Below, one piece after another: positions 6,631-44,949 of a stretch of DNA of 64,000 nucleotides (its first letter is position 1; every line of letters begins with the position of its first letter). The translations under genes and the position numbers were made by a program. The notes beneath the pieces are model-generated. The model was not told where the DNA came from and ran no database searches. It saw nothing but the letters and a program-made list of their open reading frames with translations. The stretch covers positions 115,158-179,157 of the forward strand of contig BTWA01000003.1 of NCBI GenBank assembly GCA_045863295.1, given 5' to 3'. This stretch comes from Candidatus Hydrogenedentota bacterium. GTDB lineage: Bacteria > Hydrogenedentota > Hydrogenedentia > Hydrogenedentales > SLHB01.

Positions 6631-6650
6631 TTTCATGGAGAGGCCGTTGC

Positions 6651-7730
6651 ATGTCGAAAACGTGGCGTATCGCCGGGATCAATTTTGACCACTCGCACAT
6701 GGGCGACAATTTGCGCATGGCGCATGAGCATCCGCAGGCGGAGATAGTGGGTGTCTGTCATTCGGAGCCGGGTGCGATGGAGCCCACGATCGCAGCGCTT
6801 TCCATTGCGCGGGATCGCGTGTTTACGGACTATCGGGAATGCATCGAGAAGACCAAGCCCGACATCGTGGTGTTGTGCCCGGCGACCGCCTACCACGCGG
6901 AATGGGTTGAGAACGTTGCACCTTTCGGCACGGCCATTCTGCTGGAGAAGCCGTTTGCGTCGACGCTTGGGGAAGCGGACCGGATTCTGGCGGTAACTGA
7001 GTCGAACGGAAATGTATTGGCCATCAACTGGCCGTTGCGCTGGTATCCGAGCCATGTCACGGCGAAACGCCTGGTGGACGAAGGGACTGTCGGCGACGTG
7101 ACCGAGGTTCACTACTACGACGGCAACCGAGGACCGCTTTGGCATGTTGCCGACAAGATTACAACCGATTCGGCCTACGTGGCGCGGGAGAAGTCGAAGA
7201 GTTGGTTTTATCAGCGGTCCGCGGGCGGCGGATCGCTGCTGGACTATCTTGGGTATGGCACGACTTTGGGCACCTGGTATCACGGAGGCAAAGCGCCGTT
7301 GGAAGTGACGACTGTGGTCGATGAGCCCGCGGATTTGGAGGTGGATGAACACAGCATCACGGTGGCGCGGTACTCGTGCGGGCTCTCCAAATTTGAAACG
7401 CGCTGGGGCACGTTCAGCGATCCCTGGACGCATCAGCCGCAGCCCAAGTGCGGTTTCGTGATCAAGGGGACTTTGGGTACGATCAGCAGCTACGACTACG
7501 AGCCCAGTATCCGTGTACAGACCGCGGATCGGCCGGAAGGTTTTGATTTGCCGGTGGACCCGTTGCGTCCGCCGTATCAGAACCCGGTGCAGTACTTGAT
7601 TCAATGCCTGGGTGCGGGGAGCCCCGTGGAGGGTCCACTTTCGCCCGCGATGTGCCGCGTAGGTCAACAAATTGTGGACACCGCAGTGCTGAGCGCGCGA
7701 GAAAAGCGAACCGTGGCGTTGTTGCCCTAG
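6651..7730 (+). CDS. Gfo/Idh/MocA family NAD(P)-dependent oxidoreductase
   Basis: N-terminal Rossmann block WRIAGINFDHSHMG...EIVGVCH and EKP motif. Start chosen at the ATG at 6651, preceded by ggagagg. Confidence 0.75.
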   Translation: MSKTWRIAGINFDHSHMGDNLRMAHEHPQAEIVGVCHSEPGAMEPTIAALSIARDRVFTDYRECIEKTKPDIVVLCPATAYHAEWVENVAPFGTAILLEKPFASTLGEADRILAVTESNGNVLAINWPLRWYPSHVTAKRLVDEGTVGDVTEVHYYDGNRGPLWHVADKITTDSAYVAREKSKSWFYQRSAGGGSLLDYLGYGTTLGTWYHGGKAPLEVTTVVDEPADLEVDEHSITVARYSCGLSKFETRWGTFSDPWTHQPQPKCGFVIKGTLGTISSYDYEPSIRVQTADRPEGFDLPVDPLRPPYQNPVQYLIQCLGAGSPVEGPLSPAMCRVGQQIVDTAVLSAREKRTVALLP

Positions 7731-22712: not shown

Positions 22713-22727
22713 CGATGCGGTACCTCG

Positions 22728-25700
22728 CTATTCCCGCGTTACAAATTCGTTCAGATTCATAATAACCCGCGCCAGCGCCACGTGGGCGGCGGTGTCGCAC
22801 GCGTTGGGATCGTCCGGTTTCAACCCGCCGGCAAATTGCGCCACCATTTCGCCGCCGCTGGCGAATGCCTGGCGTTGCTCGTTCAGAAAATCCACCAGCC
22901 GTTGAATCTCTTCCTCGGCGGGTTTCCGGCCCAAACAGGCGCGAAAAGCGTATTCAACGCGATCGCGGTCGTTGGGCTGGCCCGTCGCCAAGGTCTTTTT
23001 TCCGAGGGCCTGGGCGCACTCGAACAACACGGGATCGTTTAAGCGGTTCAACGCCTGAAGCGGCGTGTTTGATCGGTTCCGCGCGATCGCGGTCGTGTTC
23101 GAATTTGGGCAATCGAAATTCATGAGCATGGGATAGGGCACGGTGCGTTGAAAGAAGATGTACAGGCCGCGCCGGTATTTTTCCGGTCCGTTGTCCACCG
23201 CCCACTTTACCGAGTTGGCATAGCCCAGATCGGCAATCCCCTCGGGCATGTACGGCCTTACACTTGGACCCCCGACTTCAAGATTGATCAAACCGCTCGC
23301 GGCGAGATTAATGTCTCGAATGACTTCCGCCTCCACGCGGAACGTGTTTTGCCGGGCGAGGAGTTTATTTTCGGCATCCGACTCGGCCAGTTCAGTCCGG
23401 TAGTGCGACGACTGCCGGTACGTGGCAGACGAAGTGATCAAGCGAATGGCATTTTTCACGCTCCAACCCTGCGCCATGAATTCGGTGGCGAGCCAATCCA
23501 ACAATTCGGGGTGGGTGGGCTTTTCGCCCCGCACGCCAAAGTCCTCGGGGGTGCGCACCAGTCCTTCGCCGAACAGCACGCTCCACATGCGATTCACCTG
23601 CACGCGCGCGGTGAGCGGGTTTGCCGGGTCGATAATCCAGCGTGCAAGGTCAAGACGATCGGGCCGTTCGCCGCGCGCCTTAAACGGGTGTAATACGGCC
23701 ATAGTGCCGGCCTGCACTTCTTCGCCGGGCGAAAGGAAATCGCCTCGCTGATGGATGAATGTCTTGGGCGGTTCAGGGTTTTCCGCCAATGCCTGCGCCT
23801 TTGTGTCGGGCTCTTTGGGGAGCGCTGCGCGCAAAGCGTCCAACGTGGCAATGAGCCTTTTGATGTTCGGCTCGTTACGGCCGAAGTATTCAAGCACGGC
23901 CTTCTGCTGCACCTCAGTTCTTTGATCGGAAGGTGTACGCAGCGCCACATGTACATCATCCGGATACGGGAGCGCGGATGGCGGCGTCTTTGAATAGGAC
24001 AACCGAAAACGGCCGATATTGTGCTCGCGACCGTAATTGAAATCCATGACGAACGTCAGGACGGTGCCGTCGGTCTGGCCCACGTCCTTGTTTACGGCAA
24101 AGGTCGCAGTACGATTCTCGTTCATGTTTTCAGCGCGATAGATTGCCCAGCCCGTGTTGAGATCGCCATCAATGGCATTGGCTGCACGCAAATCGTTTTG
24201 TTCAAAATCCGCCACTGGCTCGGACAGTTCATACTTCGTCTGTTTCGCCGGGTTGGGAATGGGCGATGCGTAGACCGCAAACTCACTCAGCACGAAATTT
24301 CCATTGTGGGCGCGGCCCGGGCCATTTCCCGGCAGGCTGGGATCCGTGAGGGCTTCAATGCGGAAGCCTTTGATGCCGGTCTCTTGCGTCCGCACCACGA
24401 CGGTATATTTATCGCGTCCCGATGCCGGGCCGGTGACCAGGATAGACTTGTCTTCCTGCACGGCAAAGCTCGACCCCGATGCGGACAGAAAGCCCGAAGG
24501 TTCGAGTGCGGTCCAGCCCTGATCGGGCACCTCGAGAGATGCTTCCCATTCCGCGAGCTTTCCGGCGAGGGCTTCTCGCTGCTCCAGAATCTGCTTCTCG
24601 ACCGACGCGATTTCCTTTTCGATTTGCGCTTTTGCCTGCACGTAGGTGGCCATTTCCCCATCGCGCAATGCGGGGATGTCTTGTTCCATGGCCGTATTGA
24701 AAAACGAGTACATCTGGTAGTACTCGCGTTGGGTGATGGGATCGTATTTGTGCGTATGGCACTCAGCACAGGCCATGGTCAGGCCCATTAAGGCGGATGC
24801 CGTTGTATTGATGCGATCTTTGGCTTGCGCCACTCGAAACTCTTCTTGATCGACACCGCCTTCGCGATTTGTCAGGGTGTTCCGGTGAAATCCCGTTGCC
24901 ATGCGTTGCTCGGTGGTTGCATTAGGGAGCAAATCGCCTGCCAGTTGTTCAACGATGAATTGGTCGTAGGGCATGTCGCGGTTGATGGAATCGATTACCC
25001 AGTCCCGGTACCGGTATGCGAATGGTCGTGGCGAGTCCTTTTCGTAGCCATCGCTGTCCGCATAGCGCGCCAAGTCCAGCCAATGCCTCCCCCACCGTTC
25101 GCCGAAGTGCTCAGAGGCCAACAGGCGGTTGATCAGGCTTTCGTAGGCATACGGGTTGGTGTCGTTCACAAAGGCGTCGACGTCTTCAGGGGTCGGCAAC
25201 AGGCCAAGCAGATCAAGATACAGGCGCCGGATCAATGTGGGACGATCCGCCTCGGGGGCGGGTGAGATCCCCGCAGCCTCAAGCCGTGCAAGGACGAAGT
25301 TGTCAATGGGGTTCCGTGTCCAGTCCGGGCGGCTCACGCCGGGGACAGTCGGATGTGCAATAGGTTGATACGCCCAATGGTCACTGACAACCCGGGCATC
25401 GCCTTCGTCCTCGGGCCAAAGGGCGCCCTGGTCGATCCAGGACTTGACGAGCGCGACCTGATCAGCGCTGAGCGGTTCGCCCTTGGGGGGCATGATGTCT
25501 TCGGGCCTCGCCCCACTTATCCTTTGGAACAGATCGCTATTTGCGCTGTCGGATGCTACCAGCACGGGTCCGGAATCTCCTCCGCGCATGGCATCGGCCT
25601 TGTGGTCGAGACGCAGCCCGGACTGCTGCTTTTCAGGACCGTGGCACGAGATGCATTTGGCGGCGAAGATTGGGGCGATGTCTCGTTGAAAGTCGACCAT

Positions 25701-25811
25701 ACCGGTGGGCGCGGCTGTTGCGTTTTCCGGAGGAGTATCGCCGCTCGACCAACTGGCTAGTGTGAAAGCGGTTAGACACCAAATACTTGCAGGCCACATG
25801 ACGCTCTTCAT
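22728..25811 (-). CDS. PSD1/PSCyt1 planctomycete cytochrome c domain protein with DUF1549 and DUF1553
   Basis: CISCHGPEKQQSGLRL...IMPP heme-binding motif of PSCyt1. 1027 aa. Signal peptide. Confidence 0.8.
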   Translation of the reverse strand: MKSVMWPASIWCLTAFTLASWSSGDTPPENATAAPTGMVDFQRDIAPIFAAKCISCHGPEKQQSGLRLDHKADAMRGGDSGPVLVASDSANSDLFQRISGARPEDIMPPKGEPLSADQVALVKSWIDQGALWPEDEGDARVVSDHWAYQPIAHPTVPGVSRPDWTRNPIDNFVLARLEAAGISPAPEADRPTLIRRLYLDLLGLLPTPEDVDAFVNDTNPYAYESLINRLLASEHFGERWGRHWLDLARYADSDGYEKDSPRPFAYRYRDWVIDSINRDMPYDQFIVEQLAGDLLPNATTEQRMATGFHRNTLTNREGGVDQEEFRVAQAKDRINTTASALMGLTMACAECHTHKYDPITQREYYQMYSFFNTAMEQDIPALRDGEMATYVQAKAQIEKEIASVEKQILEQREALAGKLAEWEASLEVPDQGWTALEPSGFLSASGSSFAVQEDKSILVTGPASGRDKYTVVVRTQETGIKGFRIEALTDPSLPGNGPGRAHNGNFVLSEFAVYASPIPNPAKQTKYELSEPVADFEQNDLRAANAIDGDLNTGWAIYRAENMNENRTATFAVNKDVGQTDGTVLTFVMDFNYGREHNIGRFRLSYSKTPPSALPYPDDVHVALRTPSDQRTEVQQKAVLEYFGRNEPNIKRLIATLDALRAALPKEPDTKAQALAENPEPPKTFIHQRGDFLSPGEEVQAGTMAVLHPFKARGERPDRLDLARWIIDPANPLTARVQVNRMWSVLFGEGLVRTPEDFGVRGEKPTHPELLDWLATEFMAQGWSVKNAIRLITSSATYRQSSHYRTELAESDAENKLLARQNTFRVEAEVIRDINLAASGLINLEVGGPSVRPYMPEGIADLGYANSVKWAVDNGPEKYRRGLYIFFQRTVPYPMLMNFDCPNSNTTAIARNRSNTPLQALNRLNDPVLFECAQALGKKTLATGQPNDRDRVEYAFRACLGRKPAEEEIQRLVDFLNEQRQAFASGGEMVAQFAGGLKPDDPNACDTAAHVALARVIMNLNEFVTRE

Positions 25812-28706: not shown

Positions 28707-30368
28707 TCATTCGCCGGACACGATGAGATCGAATTTCATCCGGTTGTACTGCCGCCGGTAAAACGTGTTTGTCACCAGACCCAGCAAAGTAAGGCCTGTA
28801 ATGCAACCTGCGGACACCCACGCATTTGGAACGGCAACGGCGCCGACGGCCAACGCAAATGCCATAACCGTGGACAGCACCAGGGCAAAGGTGTGTAACC
28901 GGAATCGCTGAGTATCATTCGTGCCGGACGATACACAGAAAATAAACACAATCGGTTGTGCTGCCGCCGCGACGAGCTGGATTTTGACCGGCATCCACGC
29001 CGCACCGTCCGGCACTTTGGCTGAATAGAGTGAGAGAATGAATCCGGTTGCGGCGGCCACAGGCAGTGCCAACAGACACCGGTATAGATTGTATTTCATG
29101 AACACGGATCGAAACTGGTCATAGCCAATCGGAAGGTGCGCATAGGCCGGCACCTTTACCCCGAAATTCTGTATCGCATTTGTTCCTGGCCAGCTTCCAC
29201 CCAGCCAAGGCAGTAATGAAAACCCGCCGGCCACAAACAACATGGAACCAACCCAGATAAGCCAGTTGATATTGGAAAGAACCAATGGGAAACCCGCGGC
29301 AATACATACGACACCCACGGTGAGTTTTCTCGATATTTCCGGCTTGCCGCACAACATGAACTCCACCACGACCCTTTCTTCCTCGGTCATCCATCGGCCC
29401 ACAACGCGGTCGAGAAAGGGGAGATCGTGCCAATTCATGGATACGCTGAGCGTGTTTTCCCGGATTTCGTCTTCTAATCCGTTCCGTATTTCATCCGGTT
29501 GATACGGATAATCCAAGACTTCGTCTTGTTCTTCGTTAATGTCTTCTCCCGCGAAGAAGTCCCAAACCGGTGACACGTACGTTGCTTGCATTCTTCTCCA
29601 CATTTGCACCGCAGCGGCTAGCAACAGAGCAATGGGTAGGGCAAAGTACATGCCTGTTGCATCGCCTTCGATAAGACTCTTCTGAATCAGGGTGTCGACC
29701 CAACCGTTGGGCAGAATGCGCGAGGTCCAGGGGTATGCCCGTTCAAGGTAGTGGTTTAGATCGGATGCGAGCGTGCCGCGGGCTACGATGAGCGATATGC
29801 CCAGGGCAACTACCGAAAGTGACACATAGAAAGCAACGCGAAGCAATTGAAGAAACACCAGCGCAATGGAAAGTGCGGTGACAATCGCTGCATGCAGCGC
29901 GAGGATAAATGGAAAAGCGAGCCAATACGTGTCGGGCGCGCTGGTGGAAACCCCAAATGCGATGAGCGGCGCCGCGACAAAAGCGAACATCAGTGTAGCC
30001 TGCCGAATGCCTACTTTCATTTGGCGTTTATACACTTCTCTGTCTGGGATGGGCAGGAGACTTAGGGCCGCAAGATCGTAAGACTGGTAGATCTGGTTCC
30101 AAAACAAACCGCCTTGGATCCATGCAATCAAAATGCCGTACAGCGCCAGCGCGGTTGACGCAGGCAATCCTGCTTCGATGCGAGTGGCAAAGATGCTGTA
30201 AATAACCATGAATACGCAGCAGAGAAAGAAGGCGATCGACGCCAAAATCTTCGCCTTTTCCGAGCGGCCGGAATTCATACGGGCGCGTTCCGCGCGCAGT
30301 CCGGGATCGGCATTGACGCGTTCGCGCACGAGGCGGCGCAGGGCCCGCTCGATCGATCGTTCTGTCAC
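28707..30368 (-). CDS. Polytopic membrane protein (553 aa), putative permease partner of the upstream ABC ATPase
   Basis: At least 10 predicted TM segments. Its ATG overlaps the ATPase stop (ATGA at 30365-30368). No family assignment. Confidence 0.55.
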   Translation of the reverse strand: MTERSIERALRRLVRERVNADPGLRAERARMNSGRSEKAKILASIAFFLCCVFMVIYSIFATRIEAGLPASTALALYGILIAWIQGGLFWNQIYQSYDLAALSLLPIPDREVYKRQMKVGIRQATLMFAFVAAPLIAFGVSTSAPDTYWLAFPFILALHAAIVTALSIALVFLQLLRVAFYVSLSVVALGISLIVARGTLASDLNHYLERAYPWTSRILPNGWVDTLIQKSLIEGDATGMYFALPIALLLAAAVQMWRRMQATYVSPVWDFFAGEDINEEQDEVLDYPYQPDEIRNGLEDEIRENTLSVSMNWHDLPFLDRVVGRWMTEEERVVVEFMLCGKPEISRKLTVGVVCIAAGFPLVLSNINWLIWVGSMLFVAGGFSLLPWLGGSWPGTNAIQNFGVKVPAYAHLPIGYDQFRSVFMKYNLYRCLLALPVAAATGFILSLYSAKVPDGAAWMPVKIQLVAAAAQPIVFIFCVSSGTNDTQRFRLHTFALVLSTVMAFALAVGAVAVPNAWVSAGCITGLTLLGLVTNTFYRRQYNRMKFDLIVSGE

Positions 30369-31102
30369 GGCGGGTCTTCCTCGCTCAATTGTTGAAAGAT
30401 ATCCGCGAGCGATCCGGTTCCGCCTGTTTCACGATCTCGAAGCCGATCGATGGAATCGAAGGCGTAAACCTGTCCTTTGTGCAATACACAAATACGGTCG
30501 GAGAAGGTCTCCACGATTTCCAGTATCTGTGTGGTGTAGAGAATTGTGCTGCCACGATTGGCGGCCGCCTGCGCGTGCCGACGGAAGGCCGCGATTCCCG
30601 CTGGATCCATGCCCGAGGCGAAAGGCTCGTCGAGTAGCCACAGTTCAGGATCGACGGCAAGCAACGCCACGAGAGCCGCCTTGTAGCGTTGGCCGCGGGA
30701 CAGTTTGTTGAATGGCACTTCGGCCAGGGGAAGCAGGTCGAATTCGGCCAGCAAGTCGGCCACCCGGCTACCCGAGCCTGCATCATCACGCCGGTACAGC
30801 CGAAGGGTAAGGGCGATTTGGCGAAGTATGGGCCACTCTTCGATGACGACGGGGAAATCGGGAAGCACATTCAGCCGCCGCCGGAGATCCATGCGGTCAC
30901 GCGTGAACAAGTCCCCATCCAGCATCACTTGTCCGCGGTCGGGGGCGAGTATGCCGGAGAGGCAACGCAAGAGCGTGGTCTTACCCGCCCCGTTGTTGCC
31001 GAGAACGGCTACGATCTGGCCGGGAGCGATTTCCAGGTTGACGTTGTCGAGCGCATAGATCTTTCTAAATCGCTTGGTAACGCCGAGGAACTCGATCTTC
31101 AT
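30365..31102 (-). CDS. ABC transporter ATP-binding protein
   Basis: Walker A GNNGAGKTTLL, signature LSRGQRYKAAL, Walker B LWLLDEP. Confidence 0.8.
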   Translation of the reverse strand: MKIEFLGVTKRFRKIYALDNVNLEIAPGQIVAVLGNNGAGKTTLLRCLSGILAPDRGQVMLDGDLFTRDRMDLRRRLNVLPDFPVVIEEWPILRQIALTLRLYRRDDAGSGSRVADLLAEFDLLPLAEVPFNKLSRGQRYKAALVALLAVDPELWLLDEPFASGMDPAGIAAFRRHAQAAANRGSTILYTTQILEIVETFSDRICVLHKGQVYAFDSIDRLRDRETGGTGSLADIFQQLSEEDPP

Positions 31103-31135: not shown

Positions 31136-32866
31136 TCATGCCTTGTCACGGGGGCTTTTGCCGGCATCGGTTTTGGACTCTGCCTTGCCGTCTCCGTCGG
31201 ACTTCACATCGTCGTTAACAGGCTTCATCTTCACGAGATAATCCGGCATTTCCACGCCGGCGATGTCGCGCATGACGTCGAGCATAGGCGGCAGGCTGCG
31301 CGCGAAGTTCTGCAGGAAGTTGGAGGTAGCACTGTGTCCGTTCTGGCTGCCGCCTTCCCAAACCACGACCTTGTCAAACTTGATGTTGGAGATGGCTTTC
31401 GCGGAGGCTTGCGCCAGCCCGTCGAGGTGTTCGAGCATCAGCATCTGGAATGCCTCGTTCGATCCGCCGCATGCGTCGATGATCTTTCGCAAACCTTCGC
31501 CCTTTTTGGCCAGCTTTTCGTATTCGCCCTTGGCTTCGGCTTCCAATTTGGCAAAAATGGCGCGGGCTTCGCCTTCTGCTTCAATGCGGCGCTTCTCGGC
31601 TTCGGCTTCCGCATTTACGATGGTTTGCGCTTTTTCAGCCTTGGCCGGCGCTTCCAATTCAGCGCGGCGCTCGGCTTCGATACGCTCGGCTTCGGCAAGC
31701 GCGGCCTTGGCCATGGCGCGGTTTTGCGCTTCGAGCACGGCGGCTTCCGCCTCGCGCTTTTTCGATTCGCCGGTTTGATAGGCCTCGGCCTGTTTCACTT
31801 GGAGTTCGGCATTGGACGCCGCGACGAGAGCGCGGGATTTGTTTTCGCCTTCGATGGCGGCCGCGTCGGCTTGCGCGATGGCGATACGTTTCTCGCGGTC
31901 GGCCGATTTTTCGCCGGTGACCGCCGTGGCGTCGGCTTCCGCGACCGAGATACGCATTTGCCGCTCGGCATCTTTTTCGCCTTTGACCGCATGGGCATTG
32001 GCCTCGGCGACGGAAATACGCATGGCGCGTTCGGCTTCTTTTACCTGTGTCTCGCGTTCGTAGGCCGCGCGTTGTTCGCCGATGGCCTGTTCTTTCTGCA
32101 ATTCGGCGATGCGAACGGCTTGTTCCCGTTGCGCTTCCCGTATACCGACTTCTTTCAACTTGGTCGCATCGGCCACTTTGACATATTTCTCGCGTTCCGC
32201 ATCGGCCACGCGCACTTCGCCGAGTTTCTCCTGTTCGGCGACGTCGCCGCGGGCCTGTTGCACAGCCTGGGAAGCGGCCTTTTGCCCGATCGCTTCGATG
32301 TATCCAGCGGTATCGGTGATATCGGTGATGTTGACGTTAATCAGCACAAGGCCAATTTTCCGCAATTCCGGTTCCATGGACTCCTGAATACTGTGCAGGA
32401 ACTTCTCGCGGTCGCGGTTGATTTCCTGAATGCTCATGGATGCAATTACCTGGCGCAATTGGCCGAGAATGATGTCTTCCGCCTGCTTCTTGACTTCCAT
32501 GCCGTTCAGACCCAACAAACGGATCGCCGCGTTTTGCATGGCTTCTGGTTCCGTGCCAATCGCGACGGTAAACACACTGGGCACATTGACGCGGATATTT
32601 TCGATCGATAGGGCATCTTTCAGCGGTACTTCAATCTGAATGGGTTCGAGACTGAGCCAACCATAGTCTTGTATGAGCGGGATTATGAACGCCGCGCCGC
32701 CGTGCACGCAACGGGCCGCCTGGCCGGTGCGTACCTGGCCATAAATGACCAGCACCTGGTTGCTGGGGCAACGTTTGTAACGGGTGGCGAGCATGAGCAC
32801 AAAGCCCACAAACAGCACCACAAGTGCAAGCACAATGGCGGCGACCCAAATGTTGTCGAACGGCAT
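31136..32866 (-). CDS. Flotillin family (SPFH/band-7) protein with internal 24-aa tandem repeats
   Basis: N-terminal TM, then SPFH domain, then a long Ala/Glu-rich coiled coil with MRISVAEA.A.AV.GEK repeats. Confidence 0.8.
   Translation of the reverse strand: MPFDNIWVAAIVLALVVLFVGFVLMLATRYKRCPSNQVLVIYGQVRTGQAARCVHGGAAFIIPLIQDYGWLSLEPIQIEVPLKDALSIENIRVNVPSVFTVAIGTEPEAMQNAAIRLLGLNGMEVKKQAEDIILGQLRQVIASMSIQEINRDREKFLHSIQESMEPELRKIGLVLINVNITDITDTAGYIEAIGQKAASQAVQQARGDVAEQEKLGEVRVADAEREKYVKVADATKLKEVGIREAQREQAVRIAELQKEQAIGEQRAAYERETQVKEAERAMRISVAEANAHAVKGEKDAERQMRISVAEADATAVTGEKSADREKRIAIAQADAAAIEGENKSRALVAASNAELQVKQAEAYQTGESKKREAEAAVLEAQNRAMAKAALAEAERIEAERRAELEAPAKAEKAQTIVNAEAEAEKRRIEAEGEARAIFAKLEAEAKGEYEKLAKKGEGLRKIIDACGGSNEAFQMLMLEHLDGLAQASAKAISNIKFDKVVVWEGGSQNGHSATSNFLQNFARSLPPMLDVMRDIAGVEMPDYLVKMKPVNDDVKSDGDGKAESKTDAGKSPRDKA
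31849..32059. repeat. Coding tandem repeat (about 3 x 72 nt) inside the flotillin gene
   Basis: Visible as a 24-aa periodicity in both the real frame and the antisense-strand frames. Confidence 0.5.
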
Positions 32867-32915
32867 GACAGGCTACCTCTGGTTGATTGGTGATCGGACT
32901 GCGATTGCCCTGCAA

Positions 32916-33479
32916 TTAAAGGTACGCCAGATCCCGGTCATTCGAGGACTCGACCAGGAGCGTATCGGGCCCCGCGACCCCCACGATCTCCACCATTGAG
33001 CCGGTGGGCAAATCGGTTTCCCCTTCCGTTACTGCGGTGTATTCGAGCGTGCGGTCTTGCACGGTGACCGTCACTTTACCTTTGCCTTTTTGAGATCCGG
33101 GCACGCTGAGGTATACCACCGCAGTACGGCCGATGGCGTTCTCAATGCGGGCGGTGCCTTCGGACTGCAGCGACATCAGCAGGCGCATGATCCACGCGAC
33201 CAGTACCATGGCGAATGCGCCGCCGGTGAGCCCGGTCAAGATGGAAAAGCCGGTGCCCAAACCGGTTTCCGAGGCCGCAAGCCCTCCCAGTCCGAAGAAT
33301 GTAACGGCCGCGACAAGGGCTTTGAAGCTAAGTACGCCAAAAAACCAAGATGAATCGTGGCTGAGATCGTGGCCATCGCCAATATCGTGGTCGCCGCCCA
33401 AACCGGCCACCATGAGAAGGAGTTGCACGACCAGTATCGCACCGCCGCCCAGACCGCAAATCAAGAACAACGTCGTCAT
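32916..33479 (-). CDS. NfeD family membrane protein (flotillin-associated, YqiJ/YuaF-like)
   Basis: N-terminal multi-TM region and C-terminal OB-fold beta domain. Immediately upstream of the flotillin gene in the canonical order. Confidence 0.7.
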   Translation of the reverse strand: MTTLFLICGLGGGAILVVQLLLMVAGLGGDHDIGDGHDLSHDSSWFFGVLSFKALVAAVTFFGLGGLAASETGLGTGFSILTGLTGGAFAMVLVAWIMRLLMSLQSEGTARIENAIGRTAVVYLSVPGSQKGKGKVTVTVQDRTLEYTAVTEGETDLPTGSMVEIVGVAGPDTLLVESSNDRDLAYL

Positions 33480-33648: not shown

Positions 33649-35385
33649 CTAACGTCCCCAACGCTGTATCAAGGGGTGTCGAATCTCGGTGCTCGCGTTA
33701 TCGATGGCTTGGTAGCGCTTCTTTCCTTTGTCGAGGTAGAACGGAATAAAGGCCATCTTTTCAAGGTAGGTGGACCCCGGCTCCACCTGGATAAGGGGAC
33801 CTCGCTGATAGTCGCTAAACGGATAGACAAGGCCGCGGGTGAAGTAGGTGAGGGGGATTTGCCAGAAGTGATGGTAGTACAAATAGAATGCGCGGCGGTG
33901 AAGGGTCGCCTCGCCCCGCTCCACACTGAACGCTTGCGACGATTCGATGGCCGTGCCTACACCGTATCCCTTGGCTTCGTTCGTTAGTGCCAGCCATGGC
34001 ACGTCGTGCTCCACGCGGGTTGCCCATTCATCCTGCCAGTTCGGGCCGTGCATGGTGCGATTGATACGAAGTTTGCCGGTGCGTTCACGCCAGACGAAGT
34101 GGTCCACCAGGTGCGAGTCCAGCACAATTTCACCGTTGCGTATGGCGGAGGCATTCAGCCAGTCCCGTACTTCCAGCACGGTGGTTGTATCAACATACGG
34201 AACGCCCGCATAAAACGTATAGGTGACCGAGGCATACACCTGGGGGGTCCATTCGGGCATGCGCCCGCGATTGGTTACGCGGAACATGAGCGGGCCGCGC
34301 GTGCTGACGGTGGTCTGTTCGGGCGGATCCCAGGCGAATGTGTGCCCCCACTTCCCGTTGTCGGAGAAGGAATCCGGATTCCAATGGACCGCGGCACTCA
34401 TCGAGTTGGTAAGCAGCGGCGCATCCACCTCGTCGCGGCCTTTCAATTGAAACGACGCGATTTGCCCTGACTTGTCGTCGAGATCGACAATGAAGTATTC
34501 GTTCTCCACGACGGCGCCCAGCGATTCTCCCGTCACTTTCATATCGGCCTCGGCCGGCTTCAGGGTCTCTGCGTCTGGATTGTCATAGAGAAACACGTAG
34601 GTCTCTGATTCTTTCGCGTCCACTTTCGCGAAAAAAACCGTATCAACCGACTTGGATGGATGCTTCAAGTAGTCCGTATTGGCGGTACCGGTGGGGGTGC
34701 CTTCAAATTCCTTTGGATTGAACACTTGAAACGGGACGGGAATCAACGCGCCGCTTTCCTTGTCCACACGCACAATGCGAAGCTCCCTGGCAAGATCCGC
34801 ACAATCTTCCGCGCGCACGGCAATAGTACATTCGACCGGCTCATTTTCGCGTGCCAGCCCGGCCTCTTCATGCAATACGACAGATTGATACCGTTTCCAG
34901 CCGGTTGTGACGCCGCCCGTTTCCGGTGCGCGCGCCGCAAACGTCTTCAATACGGTCTGCGATCCGGCTTCATTGGTGTAAGTGATTTGAACGTGGATCT
35001 GTACTTCCTCACCGCTGTGCCAGGCCGAGCGCGTAACCAGGACGACATTTTTTGCTGTGGCGCTATCACGCGTTATCCAACCGGATTGGACGTGAGAGAA
35101 GCCGTCTCTAAAGAGGTAAAATGAATCTGACGCAGTACGGTTTACATGTACGGAGGCAACCGTTGCCGAAGTCCCCTCCGTCCAGTCGCCCAACGGAACG
35201 ACGATTTCGTAGTACGGATACTCCGAGGTTGGCGCGACAAACGTAATCTCATCAACATCTTTTGGGTCGTATGGCGTGTTGTACAGCACATTGCCATCGC
35301 CCACATCGCGGCCCACTTCGACGGAGGCCGGCTTCGCCCACGCGACTGCCGAAATCAGCAACATACTCAGGATTATGCGATGCAT
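33649..35385 (-). CDS. Large secreted protein of unknown function, paralog A
   Basis: Signal peptide MHRIILSMLLISAVAWA. Shares LHE.AGL.RE.EPV, VHWNPD, PW.AL.N..KG.G and LVYPF blocks with the adjacent 35440-37635 protein. Confidence 0.55.
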   Translation of the reverse strand: MHRIILSMLLISAVAWAKPASVEVGRDVGDGNVLYNTPYDPKDVDEITFVAPTSEYPYYEIVVPLGDWTEGTSATVASVHVNRTASDSFYLFRDGFSHVQSGWITRDSATAKNVVLVTRSAWHSGEEVQIHVQITYTNEAGSQTVLKTFAARAPETGGVTTGWKRYQSVVLHEEAGLARENEPVECTIAVRAEDCADLARELRIVRVDKESGALIPVPFQVFNPKEFEGTPTGTANTDYLKHPSKSVDTVFFAKVDAKESETYVFLYDNPDAETLKPAEADMKVTGESLGAVVENEYFIVDLDDKSGQIASFQLKGRDEVDAPLLTNSMSAAVHWNPDSFSDNGKWGHTFAWDPPEQTTVSTRGPLMFRVTNRGRMPEWTPQVYASVTYTFYAGVPYVDTTTVLEVRDWLNASAIRNGEIVLDSHLVDHFVWRERTGKLRINRTMHGPNWQDEWATRVEHDVPWLALTNEAKGYGVGTAIESSQAFSVERGEATLHRRAFYLYYHHFWQIPLTYFTRGLVYPFSDYQRGPLIQVEPGSTYLEKMAFIPFYLDKGKKRYQAIDNASTEIRHPLIQRWGR

Positions 35386-35439
35386 ACATAAACCTCTCAT
35401 AGGGTTGACAGTCATTGTACGGCCACAGCTTCGCGACGA

Positions 35440-37635
35440 TTACTCTTTGTGTTCACTGCCATCTGTTCGGACGCCCACGCCTTCGTCGAACGGCATTGTG
35501 AGAATGGGCATAACCCAAACCGCGGGTGTGCGAGCATCAGTTCCCATCCACTCCGTAATGTCCAGTGGATTGTTCAGCTTGGTGCATAGCACTTTGATAT
35601 CCGCAAAGGGATCATCGCCATTGGCGAAACGGAATGGTACCCATGCCATTCTTTCATAATAAAAGCTGCCCTTACGCACTGGCATCATGCGTGTAAAGTT
35701 CATCCCGCCAAACGGATAAACGAGTGGGCGTGACCAATAGATCCAAGGTCCATTCTGGACGTAGTAGTAGGGTTGAGTGAGGCTGGGTTCCTTGGCATAC
35801 CTATTGCCGCATTCGAAAGCGAGTGAGATTTGCGCAAATCCGACGCCTTTCTCCCGGTTAATCAGTGCCATCCAAGGCGTGTCGGCCGGAATCTCGAGCG
35901 CGTGAATCGGGTGCTTCCGGGACGTCTCAACATCCAGGGTGCCGACATGGCCAAGCGGATCTTGCCAAACAAATTCATTTAACACGGCGTGGTTGAATAC
36001 AAGTTCGCCATTGCGCACCGCCTGAACAAACTGTTCCGCTTGCACTTCCATCAAAGAAGTCATGACAGTGTAAGGCTGTTGAGCATAGAATTCATAGGAA
36101 ACGGCCGCGTGAACATTGTCAATGAATGGCATGGCCGCGTGACGTTCGGTGCGATGCATAATTGGGCCGGTCTTCTGGTCCATTGCGGGCTTTTCCCAAT
36201 CGCTTATGTGGACCCAGGGCTTGGGCGGCGGGTAAAAATCCGGATTCCAGTGTACGGCACCGTTGGTTTCCAGTTTGTGCTCCAATAACACCGGATCCCC
36301 GTTACCCAAAACCGTTACCTGCTCGACAGAGCCGCTGTTCACCGAGAGAAAATACCGGAACCACTTGTTTTCCACCGTCTGGCTCAGACCCTCGCCGCCG
36401 GTGATTTTCAGATCGCTATCATATGCCGGCGCTTCGGCCTTGGGATTTCCATACACGACGTAGTAGATCCGCTCTTCATACGGAAGCACATCCGCCAGAA
36501 ACACTAACTCAACCGTGGTCGTTGCATCGTACCGGTGCAGCCGCTCCTTGGTCTCCGGGTCAATTTCGACAATGGCCAGTACTTTCTCGTCTCGCCAGGT
36601 CTCTACGTTCTTCACCTGCACTGGCGCCATCACGTAGCCGTCGGAGCCAGCCTTTGGATTGGTGGGATCGTAGGTGACTATGCGAATTTCCTTTGCCGGA
36701 TCGGTGATGTCATCGGCAAATAGTCCCAGCGCAAGGTGGACCGGCTCGCCCTCGCGCCGGAGCCCGGCGGTCTCATGCAGCTTAATGGACACAAAATGCG
36801 GCCAGTCGGCATTCCAATAGCCGCCGCTGGCCGGCGCCGTGCCCTCAGCCTCGTACGTCGACTCCGCACCCGACTTGTCTTTCCAAGTGACTTTAACTGC
36901 GTGCTTCGACCCGTTGGTCCAGGTCACCGGGGCCACCACACGAAAATTGCGGTTGCCCCCGATGTGGCCGGTATAGCTTTCTCCTTCGGGAATCTCGGAT
37001 GCGGCCTTTTTCTCCGGGTGCTCCATACCTTCATTAAAGTAGCGCGCATCGCGGTTCCACACGCCGTCCACCTCCACGCGCGTGACCTCGCCGGGCTGTA
37101 CAATTTCCTTGGGCACGTTGAATGTAACATGATGATACGGGAATTCCGGCGAGGGTCCGCCGAATCCTACCGAAGTGGCTCCGTAGGACTCGGGCGCGGC
37201 TGCATTTACCGCGAAGTGCACGGGCGTGCCCTTCTCGCTTGTGCCGTCCACAGCGACTTCGTACGGTTTGCCCGGTTGCCATTGGCTGTAGGCATAGATG
37301 GCGAACGGCTCGGTGCCATGCACGACGCGATGCTTATTCATGATTCCCAGGTTCAGGACAATGAAGCGCTCGGCGGGACTGCCGTTGATGGTGACTTTGT
37401 CCACCTTGAAGGGATCGGTTTTGGGCATGGCGAACTCAGCAACCAGATCGTACGGCATGCGGTCCAGTTGGTTGACGCCTTGAAACTGCAGCGAGTCGGG
37501 TTTGGCGGGTGCGCCGTCTTCCCCGTATCCCGACGGCCGGGGATGCAATACCGGATTAGCCGCGACGGCGGCGGCGCACAGGCAGAAAAACATCGTTGCA
37601 ATGAGCGCATCTCTTAGAATACGCACCTTCCGCAT
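35440..37635 (-). CDS. Large secreted protein of unknown function, paralog B
   Basis: Signal peptide. Conserved C-terminal about 350 aa shared with paralog A. Unique N-terminal about 250 aa. Confidence 0.55.
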   Translation of the reverse strand: MRKVRILRDALIATMFFCLCAAAVAANPVLHPRPSGYGEDGAPAKPDSLQFQGVNQLDRMPYDLVAEFAMPKTDPFKVDKVTINGSPAERFIVLNLGIMNKHRVVHGTEPFAIYAYSQWQPGKPYEVAVDGTSEKGTPVHFAVNAAAPESYGATSVGFGGPSPEFPYHHVTFNVPKEIVQPGEVTRVEVDGVWNRDARYFNEGMEHPEKKAASEIPEGESYTGHIGGNRNFRVVAPVTWTNGSKHAVKVTWKDKSGAESTYEAEGTAPASGGYWNADWPHFVSIKLHETAGLRREGEPVHLALGLFADDITDPAKEIRIVTYDPTNPKAGSDGYVMAPVQVKNVETWRDEKVLAIVEIDPETKERLHRYDATTTVELVFLADVLPYEERIYYVVYGNPKAEAPAYDSDLKITGGEGLSQTVENKWFRYFLSVNSGSVEQVTVLGNGDPVLLEHKLETNGAVHWNPDFYPPPKPWVHISDWEKPAMDQKTGPIMHRTERHAAMPFIDNVHAAVSYEFYAQQPYTVMTSLMEVQAEQFVQAVRNGELVFNHAVLNEFVWQDPLGHVGTLDVETSRKHPIHALEIPADTPWMALINREKGVGFAQISLAFECGNRYAKEPSLTQPYYYVQNGPWIYWSRPLVYPFGGMNFTRMMPVRKGSFYYERMAWVPFRFANGDDPFADIKVLCTKLNNPLDITEWMGTDARTPAVWVMPILTMPFDEGVGVRTDGSEHKE

Positions 37636-37892
37636 GGTGGTTCCTCCCAAGTCGATCGGTCAGTTAAGTGGGTTCGATGCACGCGAACCGCTTCTTGCGC
37701 ACGCATAACCATAGCGCGATGCAAACGCACTGTCAAAGCCCAAACTTGACAGGGGGACCACGGAGAAGCGATACTGTTTTTATTGCGTGGGCGAGTATGG
37801 GCACGCATGCCCGGATAGATTCGATCCGGGTTCTGGTCCGCAGGACCTGCCTTCATTTCATACGGGACCAAACTCCTGCAAGGAGAGTAGTT

Positions 37893-40353: not shown

Positions 40354-42495
40354 TCACGACGGCGCCGGCACGGGTTCCGCAGCCGGCAACTCGGGCGCGG
40401 GCGCCGAGCTTTCATCCAATACCGGTGTCAAGGGGCGGCTGCCGCGGCGGCCTTGGAACATGAGCAAATCGCCATCGATTGCGAGTTCGAACTGCTGCCC
40501 GCCGATGTCCATTTTTACTTTGCCATCGATAACCTCGTATTTACCTTTCGGGCCGCGATTGAAGATCACGACGCCGTCTTCCTTGAAGTCAAGGCGCATT
40601 CGGTCACCGCGGCGCCATGTCGTACCAACAATGGTTTGTGCATCCAACATGATACCGGTATGAATGATAGGCTCATCCGGCTGTTGGCGGCGTTCGCGGG
40701 GCGGGTTCTGAGCGACTATTGGCGAGTCCGGATCGAAGGTGTACATCATGTAGCCGATAAACATTTCCTCGTACGTCTGTTCGCCAAAGTACACCGTCGC
40801 CGAGGGATCGGGATTTTGCGGGTTGCGCGGGGAGTTGTCAAACGCTCCGGTCGCAATGATGCGCGTGCCACCCGGCAAATGCTTTGGCTCTTTTAGTTGG
40901 TATAACGTTTGCCAATTGAAATCGTAGTTGGGCACGGACAGCAACACTTCCGACGTACCGTCGGGATACTGCGCCTCATACTGAAAGCGCTTGCCACGGT
41001 AGTGCATGTGCGGCGACATTGCCCACAAGACCGAATCACGTTCTATCAGGTGGCCGGCCTCAGTGGGGGCATCGTGACTTCCCGCAGGAATTTCAAAACG
41101 GGTATTGGATGCGGCACGCGTGGCCAGCACGCGATCCGGCACGCCTTCGTGAAAATAAAGGGCCATTTGCGGCCGATCGATTTCTTCTTTGCCGGTAGCG
41201 GTGTAGTGCAGTTGGAAATAGAACTTGGTGCCGGCCGGCAGGTATTTGCCCGAATTCTCGGGGAATGCGTGTGGCTCCATACCGGGCACGTATCCCGCGA
41301 AGAAACCGTTCAAGCCGCTGTCCGGATCGGTCTGCTGGTCTTGCTTTTCCGGTGGAAACAGCTCAAACACCAGTATATGGTGCGCGACTTCACGGTTGCT
41401 CGGCCGCACTTCGACCGCACGAACCCACTTGTCTTCCTCTAAGCCCGAAGGCACTTCAATGTAACGGTAGTCAAAGACGCCGGTGGACGATACCTGCTGG
41501 TCTTCCGGTAGTGATATCACCATATCCGGCTCGCCCAATTTCCATTCCGTCACGGGCATATCGGCCACGGATTCCAGCGGATCGATTTCTCCGTCGGCCG
41601 GCGAGCCCGCATCGATCCAGGCGACAAACTTCCGCAATTCGGCCGGAGTCAGAGCGCGATCATTTCCGAATTCGCCATGCTTGGGATCGGCGTGCCAAGG
41701 CGGCATCCGTTTGGACATCACCGCCTCCTTGATGGTGGGACCCCACGTTTTTACGCGCTGATGGCTTGAGAATGAAAATGGACCCACGTTGCCGGGGCTG
41801 TGACACGCAACACACTTGCCCTGCACAATGGGCACGATATCCTGCGTGTACGATACGTCTTTCACCGCCGCCGCAAAGAAGATTTTGCAGCCCTTCACCG
41901 GCGTTGACTTGACCTTGATCTCCTCGCCCTTCAGCAGCGCCTGGATTGCATCGTCCAGCCAGGTTTCGGTGGGCTCGGGTTTACGGGCCGTATAGTCGAT
42001 GCTGTCGTCGATCGCCCCGCGGTAGAGAATTGCCCAATCCTTTGGATTGATTAGGATGGCTTCGCAGGTCCGCTCGACGCCAAGCGACTTCACCACCAAT
42101 TGCGCTTCATCAAGCAGGATGGGGATATCTATGCCGAATTCCTTCGCTTCGCTCGCCACGTCTTCCCGTGTGTCGAGCGGGTTGCCGTTCAACATAAGGA
42201 AAACGACGCCCTCGGGGGCATATTTGTCACGCAGGGCTTTCAAAGCCGGCACGCTTTTTTGCGCAATCGGGCAGCCATTACCCGTGGTATACAGCACAAT
42301 GGCTTTTGAATCCGCTCCGTACCGGTGCAACTCATGCGACTGACCGAGATGATCCATGAGCCGGAAATTCTCGGCCTTCGCGGGTTTGGCGGTTTCGGCG
42401 GGCGTTTCGCTGTCGTGCTGCGCCCATGCGTACGAAACCATCACTCCAATGGCCAGAAAGGTTCCGGCAACTCCGAAAACAACTGCGCGAATCAT
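40354..42495 (-). CDS. Redoxin-like / planctomycete cytochrome c (CxxCH) / type-II copper monooxygenase (PHM/DBH-like) three-domain secreted protein, paralog 1
   Basis: Signal peptide. Thioredoxin-fold block (no CxxC). CVACHSPGNVGPF...RMPPWHAD...FVAWIDAG PSCyt-like haem domain. Cu sites HHILVF...QLHY (H-H...H) and PHMHYRG...EEMFIGYMMY (H-x-H...M). Confidence 0.7.
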   Translation of the reverse strand: MIRAVVFGVAGTFLAIGVMVSYAWAQHDSETPAETAKPAKAENFRLMDHLGQSHELHRYGADSKAIVLYTTGNGCPIAQKSVPALKALRDKYAPEGVVFLMLNGNPLDTREDVASEAKEFGIDIPILLDEAQLVVKSLGVERTCEAILINPKDWAILYRGAIDDSIDYTARKPEPTETWLDDAIQALLKGEEIKVKSTPVKGCKIFFAAAVKDVSYTQDIVPIVQGKCVACHSPGNVGPFSFSSHQRVKTWGPTIKEAVMSKRMPPWHADPKHGEFGNDRALTPAELRKFVAWIDAGSPADGEIDPLESVADMPVTEWKLGEPDMVISLPEDQQVSSTGVFDYRYIEVPSGLEEDKWVRAVEVRPSNREVAHHILVFELFPPEKQDQQTDPDSGLNGFFAGYVPGMEPHAFPENSGKYLPAGTKFYFQLHYTATGKEEIDRPQMALYFHEGVPDRVLATRAASNTRFEIPAGSHDAPTEAGHLIERDSVLWAMSPHMHYRGKRFQYEAQYPDGTSEVLLSVPNYDFNWQTLYQLKEPKHLPGGTRIIATGAFDNSPRNPQNPDPSATVYFGEQTYEEMFIGYMMYTFDPDSPIVAQNPPRERRQQPDEPIIHTGIMLDAQTIVGTTWRRGDRMRLDFKEDGVVIFNRGPKGKYEVIDGKVKMDIGGQQFELAIDGDLLMFQGRRGSRPLTPVLDESSAPAPELPAAEPVPAPS

Positions 42496-42531
42496 GGCCC
42501 ACTCCCTGGTTACGCTTGTGGCATCCAACGC

Positions 42532-44547
42532 CTATTGGATACGCGGTACTGGCTCGCCGTCATCATACGTCAACTGATCGCCGTTGATTAAAAGGTCGTA
42601 TTCATTCCCCAACACTTTCATTACAACACGCTGTCCGTCAAACCACCAGCGGCCGCGGATGCCTTTGTTCACCTGAAGCTTGCCTTCCGCGTTGAATGTG
42701 AATTTGTAGCGGCCGCTTTGCCAGACCGTGCCGACAATATTTTCCTCGGTGATGGGAATTCCCGTGCGGATGGATTCAATTACTTCCTTCTCTTTATCCA
42801 CCTTTACCGGTGCGTCGGGATCAAACGAGTAGTCCAGATACCCAATGAACATCTCGTCGAACGTCTGGTCGCCAAAATACACCGTTGTCGTCGGATCCGG
42901 GTTGTTTGGATTGCGCACTGAATTGTCGAATCCGCCGGAGGCATGAATTACCGTGCCGGCCGGTAGCTTCTTCGGTTTCTGCAATTCGTAGATGTGCTGC
43001 CAATTGAAGTCATAGGCAGGCACCGACAACAACAGCTCGCGCTTGCCGTTGGGGTACTCGGCTTCGTACTTGAACCACTTGCCGCGAAGGTGCATGTGGG
43101 GAATCAGTTTGTGCAACGTGGCGTCGCGGTCGACCGTAAACTCCGCCGTGGTCGTGCTGTTGTAGTCGCCCGGCAGAATCTCAAAATCGATATTGTTCGC
43201 CGCGCGGGTCACAAACTCCCTCGCAGGCGGCGTATCGTGAAAATATAGCGCCATTTGAGTACGTTCATGCTCTTCCTTGCCAGTCGCGGTGTAGTGATTC
43301 TGAAAAACAAAACGGGATCCGGCAGGCAAGAACTTGCCGGAATCCTTGGGATATACCTGGGGATGGAACCCCGGTACATAGCCCGCGAAGAATCCCTCCA
43401 ATCCGCCGTCGTTATCGTCGTCTTCGTCATCGTCCTCATTTTCGCGCCGGTTGGGTTCGCTGAGAAATACCAGCACGTGGTGAGTTACTTGCCGGTTGTT
43501 CGTGCGCACTTCGACCGCGCGCACCCACTTGTCTTCCGTAAGTCCGGAAGGCACGCCAAAGTAGCGATAGTCGAATACACCCGACGCGGGTATCACTTGA
43601 TCCTCGGGCAATTCGACCAGCAAGTCCGGTTCACCAAGCGACCACGCCGGCATTTCCATGTCTTCCACCGCTTCGAGCGGATCGACATCGCCATCCTTGG
43701 GCGCGCCCGCATCAAGCCATGCAAGCACGGTGCGGGTTTCCTTCGCAGACAAATCCCGCGCATTCGAAAATGCCCCAACCTCTTCGTCCGCGTGCCACGG
43801 CGGCATACGTTGAGTCATCAGGACTTCTTCGATCATCGGGCCCCAGGTTTGTACGCGGCGATGGCTGGAGAAACTGAATGGGCCAATATTGCCCGGACTG
43901 TGGCAACTTACACACTTGTTCTCGATGATCGGAACAATGTCGTTGACATACGAAACCTCTTGAGGCAACGGCTGGTACTTGATGGCCGTACCGTTGCTGG
44001 CTTCGCCTGACGTCACTTCTTTCCCTGCGATTACGGCCTCCAAAGCCGCCTTTAGCCCTGCTGCGGCACCACGATAGACAATTCCGCACTCTTTAGGTTC
44101 CACCACCAGGGCCTCTCCATTGCGCTCGAAGCCAAGACGGCGGGAGACCATTTGCGATTCGTCCATCAGAATTGGCAATGCCACACCCGCATCCGCAACG
44201 ATGTCGGCCACGTGACCGCGCTTTTCCCGCTTGTTCGCGTCCAGAAAAAGGAAGACTACGCCTTGTTGGCCCAGTTCCTGGTGAAGGGCATTCAAGTTGG
44301 GCAGGTCAGCGCGAGACGTGTCGCACTTGGTCGAGAAGGAGTAGATAACAATGGCTTTCGCATCGGCGCAGTAGCGTGAAAGTTGATGCGCCTCGCCGTT
44401 CTGATCAATTAATAGGAAATCAGGGGCTTTGTTTGGCTTTACGCCGGGGTCGGCCTGTTCAACGTTTTGCCCCGCGGCAGTCAGAGCCAGCACCATCGTC
44501 AGCAGCACGTTCGTCACCCAAATCTTTCCAGCAAACCTTGACCGCAT
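42532..44547 (-). CDS. Redoxin-like / cytochrome c / PHM-like copper monooxygenase three-domain protein, paralog 2
   Basis: Same architecture. CVSCHSPGNIGPF...RMPPWHAD. THHVLVF...QNHY and PHMHLRG...DEMFIGYLDY. AAGAGG SD 9 nt upstream of the chosen ATG (44547). Confidence 0.7.
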   Translation of the reverse strand: MRSRFAGKIWVTNVLLTMVLALTAAGQNVEQADPGVKPNKAPDFLLIDQNGEAHQLSRYCADAKAIVIYSFSTKCDTSRADLPNLNALHQELGQQGVVFLFLDANKREKRGHVADIVADAGVALPILMDESQMVSRRLGFERNGEALVVEPKECGIVYRGAAAGLKAALEAVIAGKEVTSGEASNGTAIKYQPLPQEVSYVNDIVPIIENKCVSCHSPGNIGPFSFSSHRRVQTWGPMIEEVLMTQRMPPWHADEEVGAFSNARDLSAKETRTVLAWLDAGAPKDGDVDPLEAVEDMEMPAWSLGEPDLLVELPEDQVIPASGVFDYRYFGVPSGLTEDKWVRAVEVRTNNRQVTHHVLVFLSEPNRRENEDDDEDDDNDGGLEGFFAGYVPGFHPQVYPKDSGKFLPAGSRFVFQNHYTATGKEEHERTQMALYFHDTPPAREFVTRAANNIDFEILPGDYNSTTTAEFTVDRDATLHKLIPHMHLRGKWFKYEAEYPNGKRELLLSVPAYDFNWQHIYELQKPKKLPAGTVIHASGGFDNSVRNPNNPDPTTTVYFGDQTFDEMFIGYLDYSFDPDAPVKVDKEKEVIESIRTGIPITEENIVGTVWQSGRYKFTFNAEGKLQVNKGIRGRWWFDGQRVVMKVLGNEYDLLINGDQLTYDDGEPVPRIQ

Positions 44548-44949
44548 GATAGCCATCCTCTTGTCATTACCTACCGGTGGGTACGAATTCGCTTGACAGG
44601 CTCCCTTCGAAGGAACCCCTGTCGACCGGATTGGCACAACCTCGCACAAATTCGAATTGCATGGATATTCGGCAATCGGCACATCGCGCAGAAATGCCGC
44701 AAATTACTGATACGAATACCTTTACGGAATAAGCTCCGTTCACCATGAGAGCGGGGGCGACCATGCCACTACGAGGCCGGTCCCCGCCAAGCTACGACGA
44801 TTCCACAGCTAGACGATACACGATACTGGTCTTTTTGACAAGGTACAAGAAACAGTCCTGCCCTTCACTTCCATGCATTCATTGGACGCAGGAAACCAAG
44901 TAAAGGTTTGGAAAATTTTGGAGTGATTGCCACAAACACGTGTGGATAG

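Follow-up and report, generated by a model that had tools for sequence, protein, structure and literature searches.

An exported B-A protein pair from Candidatus Hydrogenedentota belongs to a previously undescribed family with a galactose-mutarotase-like domain

In this study, we analyzed a 64,000-nucleotide (nt) stretch of a Candidatus Hydrogenedentota genome (GenBank assembly GCA_045863295.1, contig BTWA01000003.1, positions 115,158 to 179,157 of the forward strand), hereafter the window, and focused on two adjacent genes on its minus strand, which we named A and B. A first-pass annotation of the sequence had described their products as a tandem pair of secreted paralogues with no recognizable domain. 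We found that the two genes probably form an operon, in the order B-A, which encodes exported members of one protein family; neither Pfam nor NCBIfam has a model for this family, and no solved structure is related to it by sequence. B is a canonical member of the family. Meanwhile, A is a derived paralogue with the same fold, in which a set of residues kept in the rest of the family has been replaced.

The probable B-A operon and its two products

The longest open reading frames (ORFs) at this locus are 33649..35415 (588 amino acids) for A and 35440..37650 (736 amino acids) for B. The likely start of A is the ATG at 35385, with a Shine-Dalgarno-like AGAGG 8 nt upstream, and the likely start of B is the ATG at 37635, with GGAGG 7 nt upstream. 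The lengths of 579 and 732 residues given in the first-pass annotation counted the stop codons; the proteins have 578 residues (as deposited) and 731 residues. Both are deposited from a metagenome-recovered Candidatus Hydrogenedentota genome. The features of the operon are as follows.

37708..37736, minus strand: match to a sigma-70-like promoter (TTGACA-17-TATGGT), roughly 73 nt ahead of the B start
35440..37635, minus strand: gene B, 731 amino acids, AMXMBFR84_06520, canonical family member
37555..37635, minus strand: B signal peptide or N-terminal anchor, MRKVRILRDALIATMFFCLCAAAVA, with putative cleavage before Ala
35386..35439, minus strand: B-A spacer, 54 nt, carrying the Shine-Dalgarno-like AGAGG
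33649..35385, minus strand: gene A, 578 amino acids, AMXMBFR84_06510 (100% match to P0001), derived paralogue with the same fold as B
35335..35385, minus strand: A signal peptide, MHRIILSMLLISAVAWA, with putative cleavage before Lys

A terminator scan found no terminator-like site in the spacer, and thus A and B are probably co-transcribed. The promoter match lies in the divergent intergenic region of about 258 nt between B and a GT2 gene; it comes from a consensus scan that returned 5 sites against 2.8 expected and is weak evidence for a promoter.

BLASTP aligned the two proteins over 563 columns with 30% identity (E = 9e-60), which makes their paralogy clear. The match joined A 57-586 to B 161-701 (residue numbers of the 588- and 736-residue ORFs). 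The shared C-terminal region reported in the first-pass annotation is therefore real, and its length is about 530-540 residues rather than about 350. Unique to B are its first ~160 residues, which comprise the signal peptide and an extra beta domain, and its last ~30 residues, which form a C-terminal tail. Three of the shared motifs noted earlier, LHE(E/T)AGL.RE.EPV, AVHWNPD and LVYPF, were found in both A and B; a fourth, (V/T)PW(L/M)AL(T/I)N.EKG.G, is approximate and reads VPWLALTNEAKGYG in A and TPWMALINREKGVG in B.

Hydrophobicity statistics showed a signal-like N-terminal segment in A and B, in 84 of 87 A-type orthologues and in 74 of 84 B-type orthologues, which bears out the description of an exported pair. 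In the structural models, this segment forms a helix at residues 4-15 of A and at residues 2-24 of B, the latter followed by a linker with a low predicted local distance difference test score (pLDDT).

A small family with a conserved gene order

Searches of A and B against Pfam and NCBIfam at E-values up to 10 returned only chance-level matches to Big_4 and FlgC, and there was no match among PDB sequences at E up to 10 using phmmer and two family profile searches. A Pfam scan of 71 family members gave only weak matches, to MacB_PCD (five members) and to Laman-like_dom, the GH38 central beta domain (three members; PF21260, best E 1.3e-5). Ten KSB1-type members scanned singly against Pfam had no match, and the named homologues carried no precomputed Pfam domain. 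In three homologue searches, every homologue with a source name was called "hypothetical protein". In addition, literature searches on a mutarotase-like new glycoside hydrolase (GH) family, on DUF5107 and on GH174 together with mutarotase yielded nothing useful. The earlier impression that no domain is recognizable by sequence was thus correct, and A and B belong to a previously undescribed family.

This family is small: when 1.84 billion cluster representatives were searched exhaustively with a profile, 576 proteins matched with E-values up to 1e-3, and 186 with E-values up to 1e-30. We then scanned one genome per species and obtained 79 loci, nearly all in metagenome-assembled genomes, from Hydrogenedentota, KSB1, Calditrichota, Planctomycetota, Spirochaetota, Anaerolineae, Actinomycetota and Eubacteriales. 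Members of the family come from at least eight bacterial phyla and almost always from uncultured lineages, and no database names the family. Ten of the loci with a Hydrogenedentota-type B-A arrangement (L012, L016, L017, L019, L020, L021, L027, L032, L035 and L037; 58-66% identity to the window protein) lie on contigs labelled Bifidobacterium, Bifidobacteriaceae, Nitrospiraceae or Verrucomicrobia, and these contigs are probably mis-binned or mislabelled.

The ORFs at each locus were assigned to a type with A- and B-specific hidden Markov models (HMMs). Of the 44 A-type genes, 38 are directly preceded by a B-type gene in the same orientation; four of the others are at contig edges and two stand alone. 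The gap between the two genes ranges from -17 to +155 nt across the 38 loci (median about 11 nt). Thus, B-A is a conserved two-gene cassette. Outside Hydrogenedentota, KSB1 and Calditrichota, the family gene is single-copy and scores as B-type. Only 1 of 106 single-copy relatives has an N-terminal hydrophobic segment, and most of these proteins start about 10 residues ahead of the conserved FPTPEHPYYH motif.

In a neighbour-joining tree, the A-type proteins are monophyletic. They lie about 0.80 distance units from the B-type, secreted single-copy and cytoplasmic groups, and these three groups are 0.51-0.68 units apart.

At some Planctomycete and Hydrogenedentota loci, we also observed a third, very distant paralogue of about 490 residues, which scores about 115-135 with the family HMM and lies upstream of the main gene at a distance of up to about 5 kb (~4400-5880 in L007, L008 and L080; 5672-7150 in L035; 538-2088 in L032). 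In addition, several of the distant members P0344, P0330, P0371, P0370, P0359 and P0374 are fused to PF01883 (FeS_assembly_P/DUF59) at either end; P0371 also carries a domain for T9SS sorting, and the N-terminus of P0241 weakly resembles Gfo/Idh/MocA.

Predicted fold and a putative site that differs between A and B

Confident AlphaFold2 models built from family alignments were obtained for A (pLDDT 91.9, predicted template modelling score 0.90) and B (pLDDT 89.6, predicted template modelling score 0.81). Apart from the signal helix, both models are all-beta, which excludes the beta-helix and alpha-toroid folds suggested in the first-pass annotation. They show immunoglobulin (Ig)-like N-terminal domains (one in A, two in B), then a beta-sandwich and, at the C-terminus, a supersandwich about 290 residues long. 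The supersandwich superposes on domains of the galactose-mutarotase-like superfamily, and Foldseek agrees with this placement. In the models, the core of the family is the beta-sandwich followed by this galactose-mutarotase-like beta-supersandwich. The modelled domains and the residues conserved in them are listed below.

37198..37494, minus strand: B-only N-terminal beta domain (residues ~48-146), from BLASTP coverage and the B model; absent from A and from single-copy relatives
36445..36798, minus strand: B beta-sandwich (residues ~280-397), with the family-wide E288, R294, E316, R318 and Q340; probable equivalent of the GH38 "central" beta domain
35536..36423, minus strand: B galactose-mutarotase-like supersandwich (residues ~405-700), with the full conserved putative site: H453, E456, N458, H462-W-N-P, W474, H476, S478, D479, W480, R498, R541, N542, E544, N548, E554, W588, W631, Y633, R636, N646 and R649
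34576..34893, minus strand: A beta-sandwich (residues ~165-270), with E173, R179, E201, R203 and Q220, from model and conservation
33652..34539, minus strand: A mutarotase-like supersandwich (residues ~283-578), which keeps H334-W-N-P, W346, H348, W352, R416, N417, E419, W464, Y514 and R517

B also has an Ig-like domain between its extra N-terminal beta domain and the beta-sandwich. The HMM coordinates of the single-copy homologues begin at about profile position 150.

Several known families share this fold class. The closest single-domain structural neighbour, and the top such match for B, is the catalytic domain of the GH174 endo-alpha-1,3-L-fucanases (PDB 8jd7 and 9k1g). However, the identity is only 9-14%, the family profile misses GH174 at E up to 10, and A and B have additional Ig-like and GH38-central-like domains. 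A and B thus lack the significant sequence similarity to characterized members that defines GH174, and the only sign of a fucoidan-specific context is one GH29 neighbour. The core of A and B also looks like the C-terminal half of the GH38 alpha-mannosidases (e.g., S. pyogenes 2wyh), which is made of the central beta domain and the mutarotase-like Glyco_hydro_38C, standing alone. In contrast to GH38, A and B wholly lack the catalytic N-terminal alpha/beta domain (Glyco_hydro_38N, with the metal site) and the helical bundle, and neither protein has a GH38 match in Pfam. The aldose 1-epimerase superfamily, polysaccharide lyase family 4 (PL4) and GH186 have no sequence-profile relationship to A and B, which are larger, multi-domain and include exported forms; A and B also do not belong by sequence to the PL26 or PL4 rhamnogalacturonan lyases. 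The DUF5107/BDI_1685-like proteins (PDB 5cd6) are another sequence family with a TPR C-terminus, and no DUF5107 match was found by Pfam in A, B or their relatives. Taken together, membership in GH38, GH174, PL4, PL26 and the aldose epimerases fails by sequence and only the fold class is shared. The novelty lies in a new family and a new paired arrangement inside a well-known fold class.

One further reading of the fold is that A and B are enlarged aldose-1-epimerase-type enzymes, acting as a mutarotase, isomerase or epimerase on a sugar or sugar derivative without cleaving a glycosidic bond. The shared superfamily allows for it. However, Aldose_epim (PF01263) gave no match for A or B at E up to 1-10 and none in the 71 members at E up to 1, and the proteins have 540-730 residues with two to three extra beta domains. 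Moreover, mutarotases are not usually exported, unlike the family members from Hydrogenedentota, KSB1 and Planctomycetes, and the Planctomycete and KSB1 loci are polysaccharide-degradation neighbourhoods. We consider this reading improbable.

The conservation of the family is split between two sets of residues. The first set is common to all groups and comprises (A/B numbering) E173/288, R179/294, E201/316, R203/318, Q220/340, H334-W-N-P/462-465, W346/474, H348/476, W352/480, R416/541, N417/542, E419/544, W464/588, Y514/633 and R517/636. In the B-type, secreted single-copy and cytoplasmic proteins, conservation of the second set approaches 100%, and the A-type proteins have systematically exchanged these residues, as follows.

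B H453: Leu in A (L325)
B E456: Ser in A (S328)
B N458: Ser in A (S330)
B S478: Phe in A (F350)
B D479: Ala in A (A351)
B R498: Asn in A (N372)
B N548: Asp in A (D423)
B E554: His in A (H429)
B W631: Leu in A (L512)
B N646: Gln in A (Q527)
B R649: Pro in A (P530)

A therefore keeps the fold and about half of the putative site, without some 10 residues that are kept in the B-type and single-copy relatives, and it also lacks the conserved C-terminal tail of B. This non-equivalence of the two proteins had been overlooked in the first-pass annotation. The replacements are themselves 85-100% conserved among the A orthologues, which indicates that A is not a decaying copy but is maintained by purifying selection of its own. 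Meanwhile, E456, D479, R498, H476 and E544 are near-invariant even in members only 22-30% identical to B. The two sets interleave along the sequence in shared loops and strands, and this suggests that they form one site, of which half has been remodelled in A.

Gene neighbourhoods and possible function

We clustered the neighbouring ORFs of the relatives and annotated them with Pfam and NCBIfam. The following families recur near the family gene.

Gfo/Idh/MocA oxidoreductase (UDP-GlcNAc-3-dehydrogenase-like): 17 loci
Two ABC permeases: 17 loci each
SBP_bac_1 solute-binding protein: 15 loci
SSF sodium:solute symporter: 11 loci, directly adjoining B-A in Hydrogenedentota
URO-D/MtaA-like protein: 10 loci
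FGGY kinase (XylB-like): 8 loci
NagB-like deaminase: 8 loci
PIG-L deacetylase: 7 loci

A typical Anaerolineae or Spirochaete operon consists of a solute-binding protein, two permeases, the family gene, PIG-L, and a NagB-like or Gfo gene. At KSB1 and Planctomycete loci there are also genes for GH29, GH43, GH20, sulfatase, BNR and heparinase II/III, and DUF5107-TPR proteins and M20/M24 peptidases are also recurrent near relatives. As a separate observation, the URO-D protein is MtaA-CmuA-like and lies in the sugar operons of the family, at 18679-19941 in L006 and at nine other loci. Five Anaerolineae/Spirochaete operons (L052, L053, L071, L081 and L086) have no annotated glycosidase directly beside the family gene, with singleton neighbours left unscanned. 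The family repeatedly fills the slot of a sugar-uptake operon in which a glycosidase would be expected.

These results are best explained by a new carbohydrate-active family, in which B is a canonical, probably catalytic exported member and A is a re-specialized, probably non-catalytic one; we give this reading an even chance of being right. The working site would be on the mutarotase-like domain. This domain is catalytic in GH174, PL4 (rhamnogalacturonan lyase, 1nkg), GH186 (OpgG/OpgD) and the aldose epimerases. The candidate site would be a pocket rich in aromatic side chains, with conserved His, Arg and Asn residues and carboxylates. All of it is present in B, where the carboxylates E456 and D479, both near-invariant, accompany E544, and we infer that B is the probable catalytic subunit. 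Its substrate would be an oligosaccharide or glycoconjugate in the periplasm or outside the cell. The PIG-L, NagB-like and Gfo neighbours hint that the substrate may contain amino sugars. Because the A-specific replacements are conserved among orthologues, A is most likely a non-catalytic or re-specialized partner, for example, a substrate-binding subunit or the mate of B in a heterodimer, and translational coupling would allow it to be made in step with B.

A more specific version of this proposal is tentative. It holds that the B-type and single-copy proteins are a new glycoside hydrolase or lyase family, with E456, D479, E544 and a His/Arg/Trp pocket on a supersandwich derived from the "accessory" C-terminal module of the GH38 type, and that Hydrogenedentota, KSB1 and Calditrichota have an obligate exported heterocomplex of an active B and a catalytically dead, substrate-binding A.

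Several points weigh against an enzymatic B with A as its partner. No member of the family has a known catalytic activity, and the physical interaction of A and B is suggested solely by the gene order. The clustering of the conserved residues in a pocket is putative, as is their overlay on the catalytic D119, E120 and E218 of the GH174 enzyme Fun174A (PMC11943901). In addition, some alignment columns are ambiguous, and A has an Arg one residue off the positions of both R498 and R649 of B. The window pair itself has no sugar transporter or catabolic gene nearby: a search of the 64 kb for SSF, PIG-L, URO-D, FGGY and solute-binding protein homologues found only an unrelated Gfo/Idh/MocA gene at 6525-7730.

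Furthermore, GH38, PL26 and GH2 are the closest multi-domain structural matches, and their equivalent beta domains are accessory and non-catalytic. This favours a reading in which A and B are both non-catalytic carbohydrate-binding or scaffold proteins, with the role of retaining or displaying a glycan in the periplasm or at the cell surface, like free-standing accessory beta domains of GH38, GH2 or PL26 or the periplasmic domain of YidC. However, the single-copy relatives without a signal peptide lie in sugar-catabolic operons that already encode a solute-binding protein and, in the five operons listed above, have no annotated glycosidase beside them, which argues for an enzyme over a surface binding protein; a cytoplasmic protein encoded next to a dedicated solute-binding protein more probably serves as an enzyme than as a binding module. 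The dense invariant charged and His residues also persist at 22-30% identity, and the top single-domain match of B is a catalytic domain, that of GH174. Thus, we regard a purely binding or scaffolding role as rather unlikely.

If the B-type proteins are enzymes, they would constitute a new CAZy-type family and another case of catalysis on a beta-sandwich scaffold beside GH174, GH186 and PL4, and the metabolic reconstruction of metagenome-recovered genomes of Hydrogenedentota, Anaerolineae and Spirochaetota would be improved. Among proteins secreted by bacteria, the pair of a canonical and a degenerate member is also a tidy test case for partnerships of enzymes and pseudo-enzymes. The importance of the result is moderate: its fold class is already familiar, and it addresses no long-standing open question and overturns no current understanding. 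The family is a solid lead for the discovery of carbohydrate enzymes in uncultured phyla.

The first-pass annotation had placed A and B in one accessory module with the nearby GT2, NUDIX-MBL and "Cu-monooxygenase" genes, with a proposed role in making or altering an extracellular glycan or glycopeptide. The genes are close to each other in this window, where GT2 diverges from the intergenic region shared with B, and the M20/M24 peptidases and PIG-L near some distant relatives leave room for a glycopeptide-like substrate. However, when the window proteins were compared by phmmer with all ORFs at about 80 related loci, with up to 10 kb of flank on each side, no locus had a homologue of GT2, of NUDIX-MBL or of either AhpC/"Cu-monooxygenase" protein, so that no co-occurrence with the monooxygenase paralogues was seen; the NfeD-like, SPFH, BON, 529-residue and 553-residue proteins of the window were likewise found at none of these loci. 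The flanking genes vary even between the closest relatives. The "Cu-monooxygenase" label is itself weak: only one of the two genes matches Cu2_monoox_C, and its score of 22.0 bits (E = 1.2e-4) falls short of the 23-bit cut-off. The module is thus very improbable. A role on a carbohydrate or glycoconjugate is still plausible from the fold and from the sugar operons of the relatives; it is the linkage to the module that does not hold. In the window, A and B are a stand-alone cassette.

The two genes labelled as monooxygenases, at 40354-42528 and 42532-44682 (minus strand), encode tandem paralogues of about 720 residues with an N-terminal AhpC/TSA-Redoxin domain; the greater part of both proteins has no domain assignment. 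Downstream of A, a 187-residue NfeD-like ORF (E = 1.1e-3) followed by an SPFH/Band-7 gene lies at 31136-33479 (minus strand), a classic NfeD-SPFH pair. An operon of A and B with these downstream genes was considered and rejected: the NfeD-like and SPFH genes are a separate unit and recur beside no relatives. Beyond the SPFH gene lie an ABC ATPase (30365-31102), the 553-residue protein, which has no Pfam match, and a triple-BON protein. Finally, the window has a pair of genes for a PSCyt1/PSCyt2/PSD1 protein and a DUF1501 protein at 21234-25811 (minus strand). The same PSCyt/DUF1501 pair directly follows B-A or B-A-SSF at two related loci (13824-17682 in L001 and 14158-18030 in L005), a recurrence that may be due to chance, as both families are abundant in such genomes.

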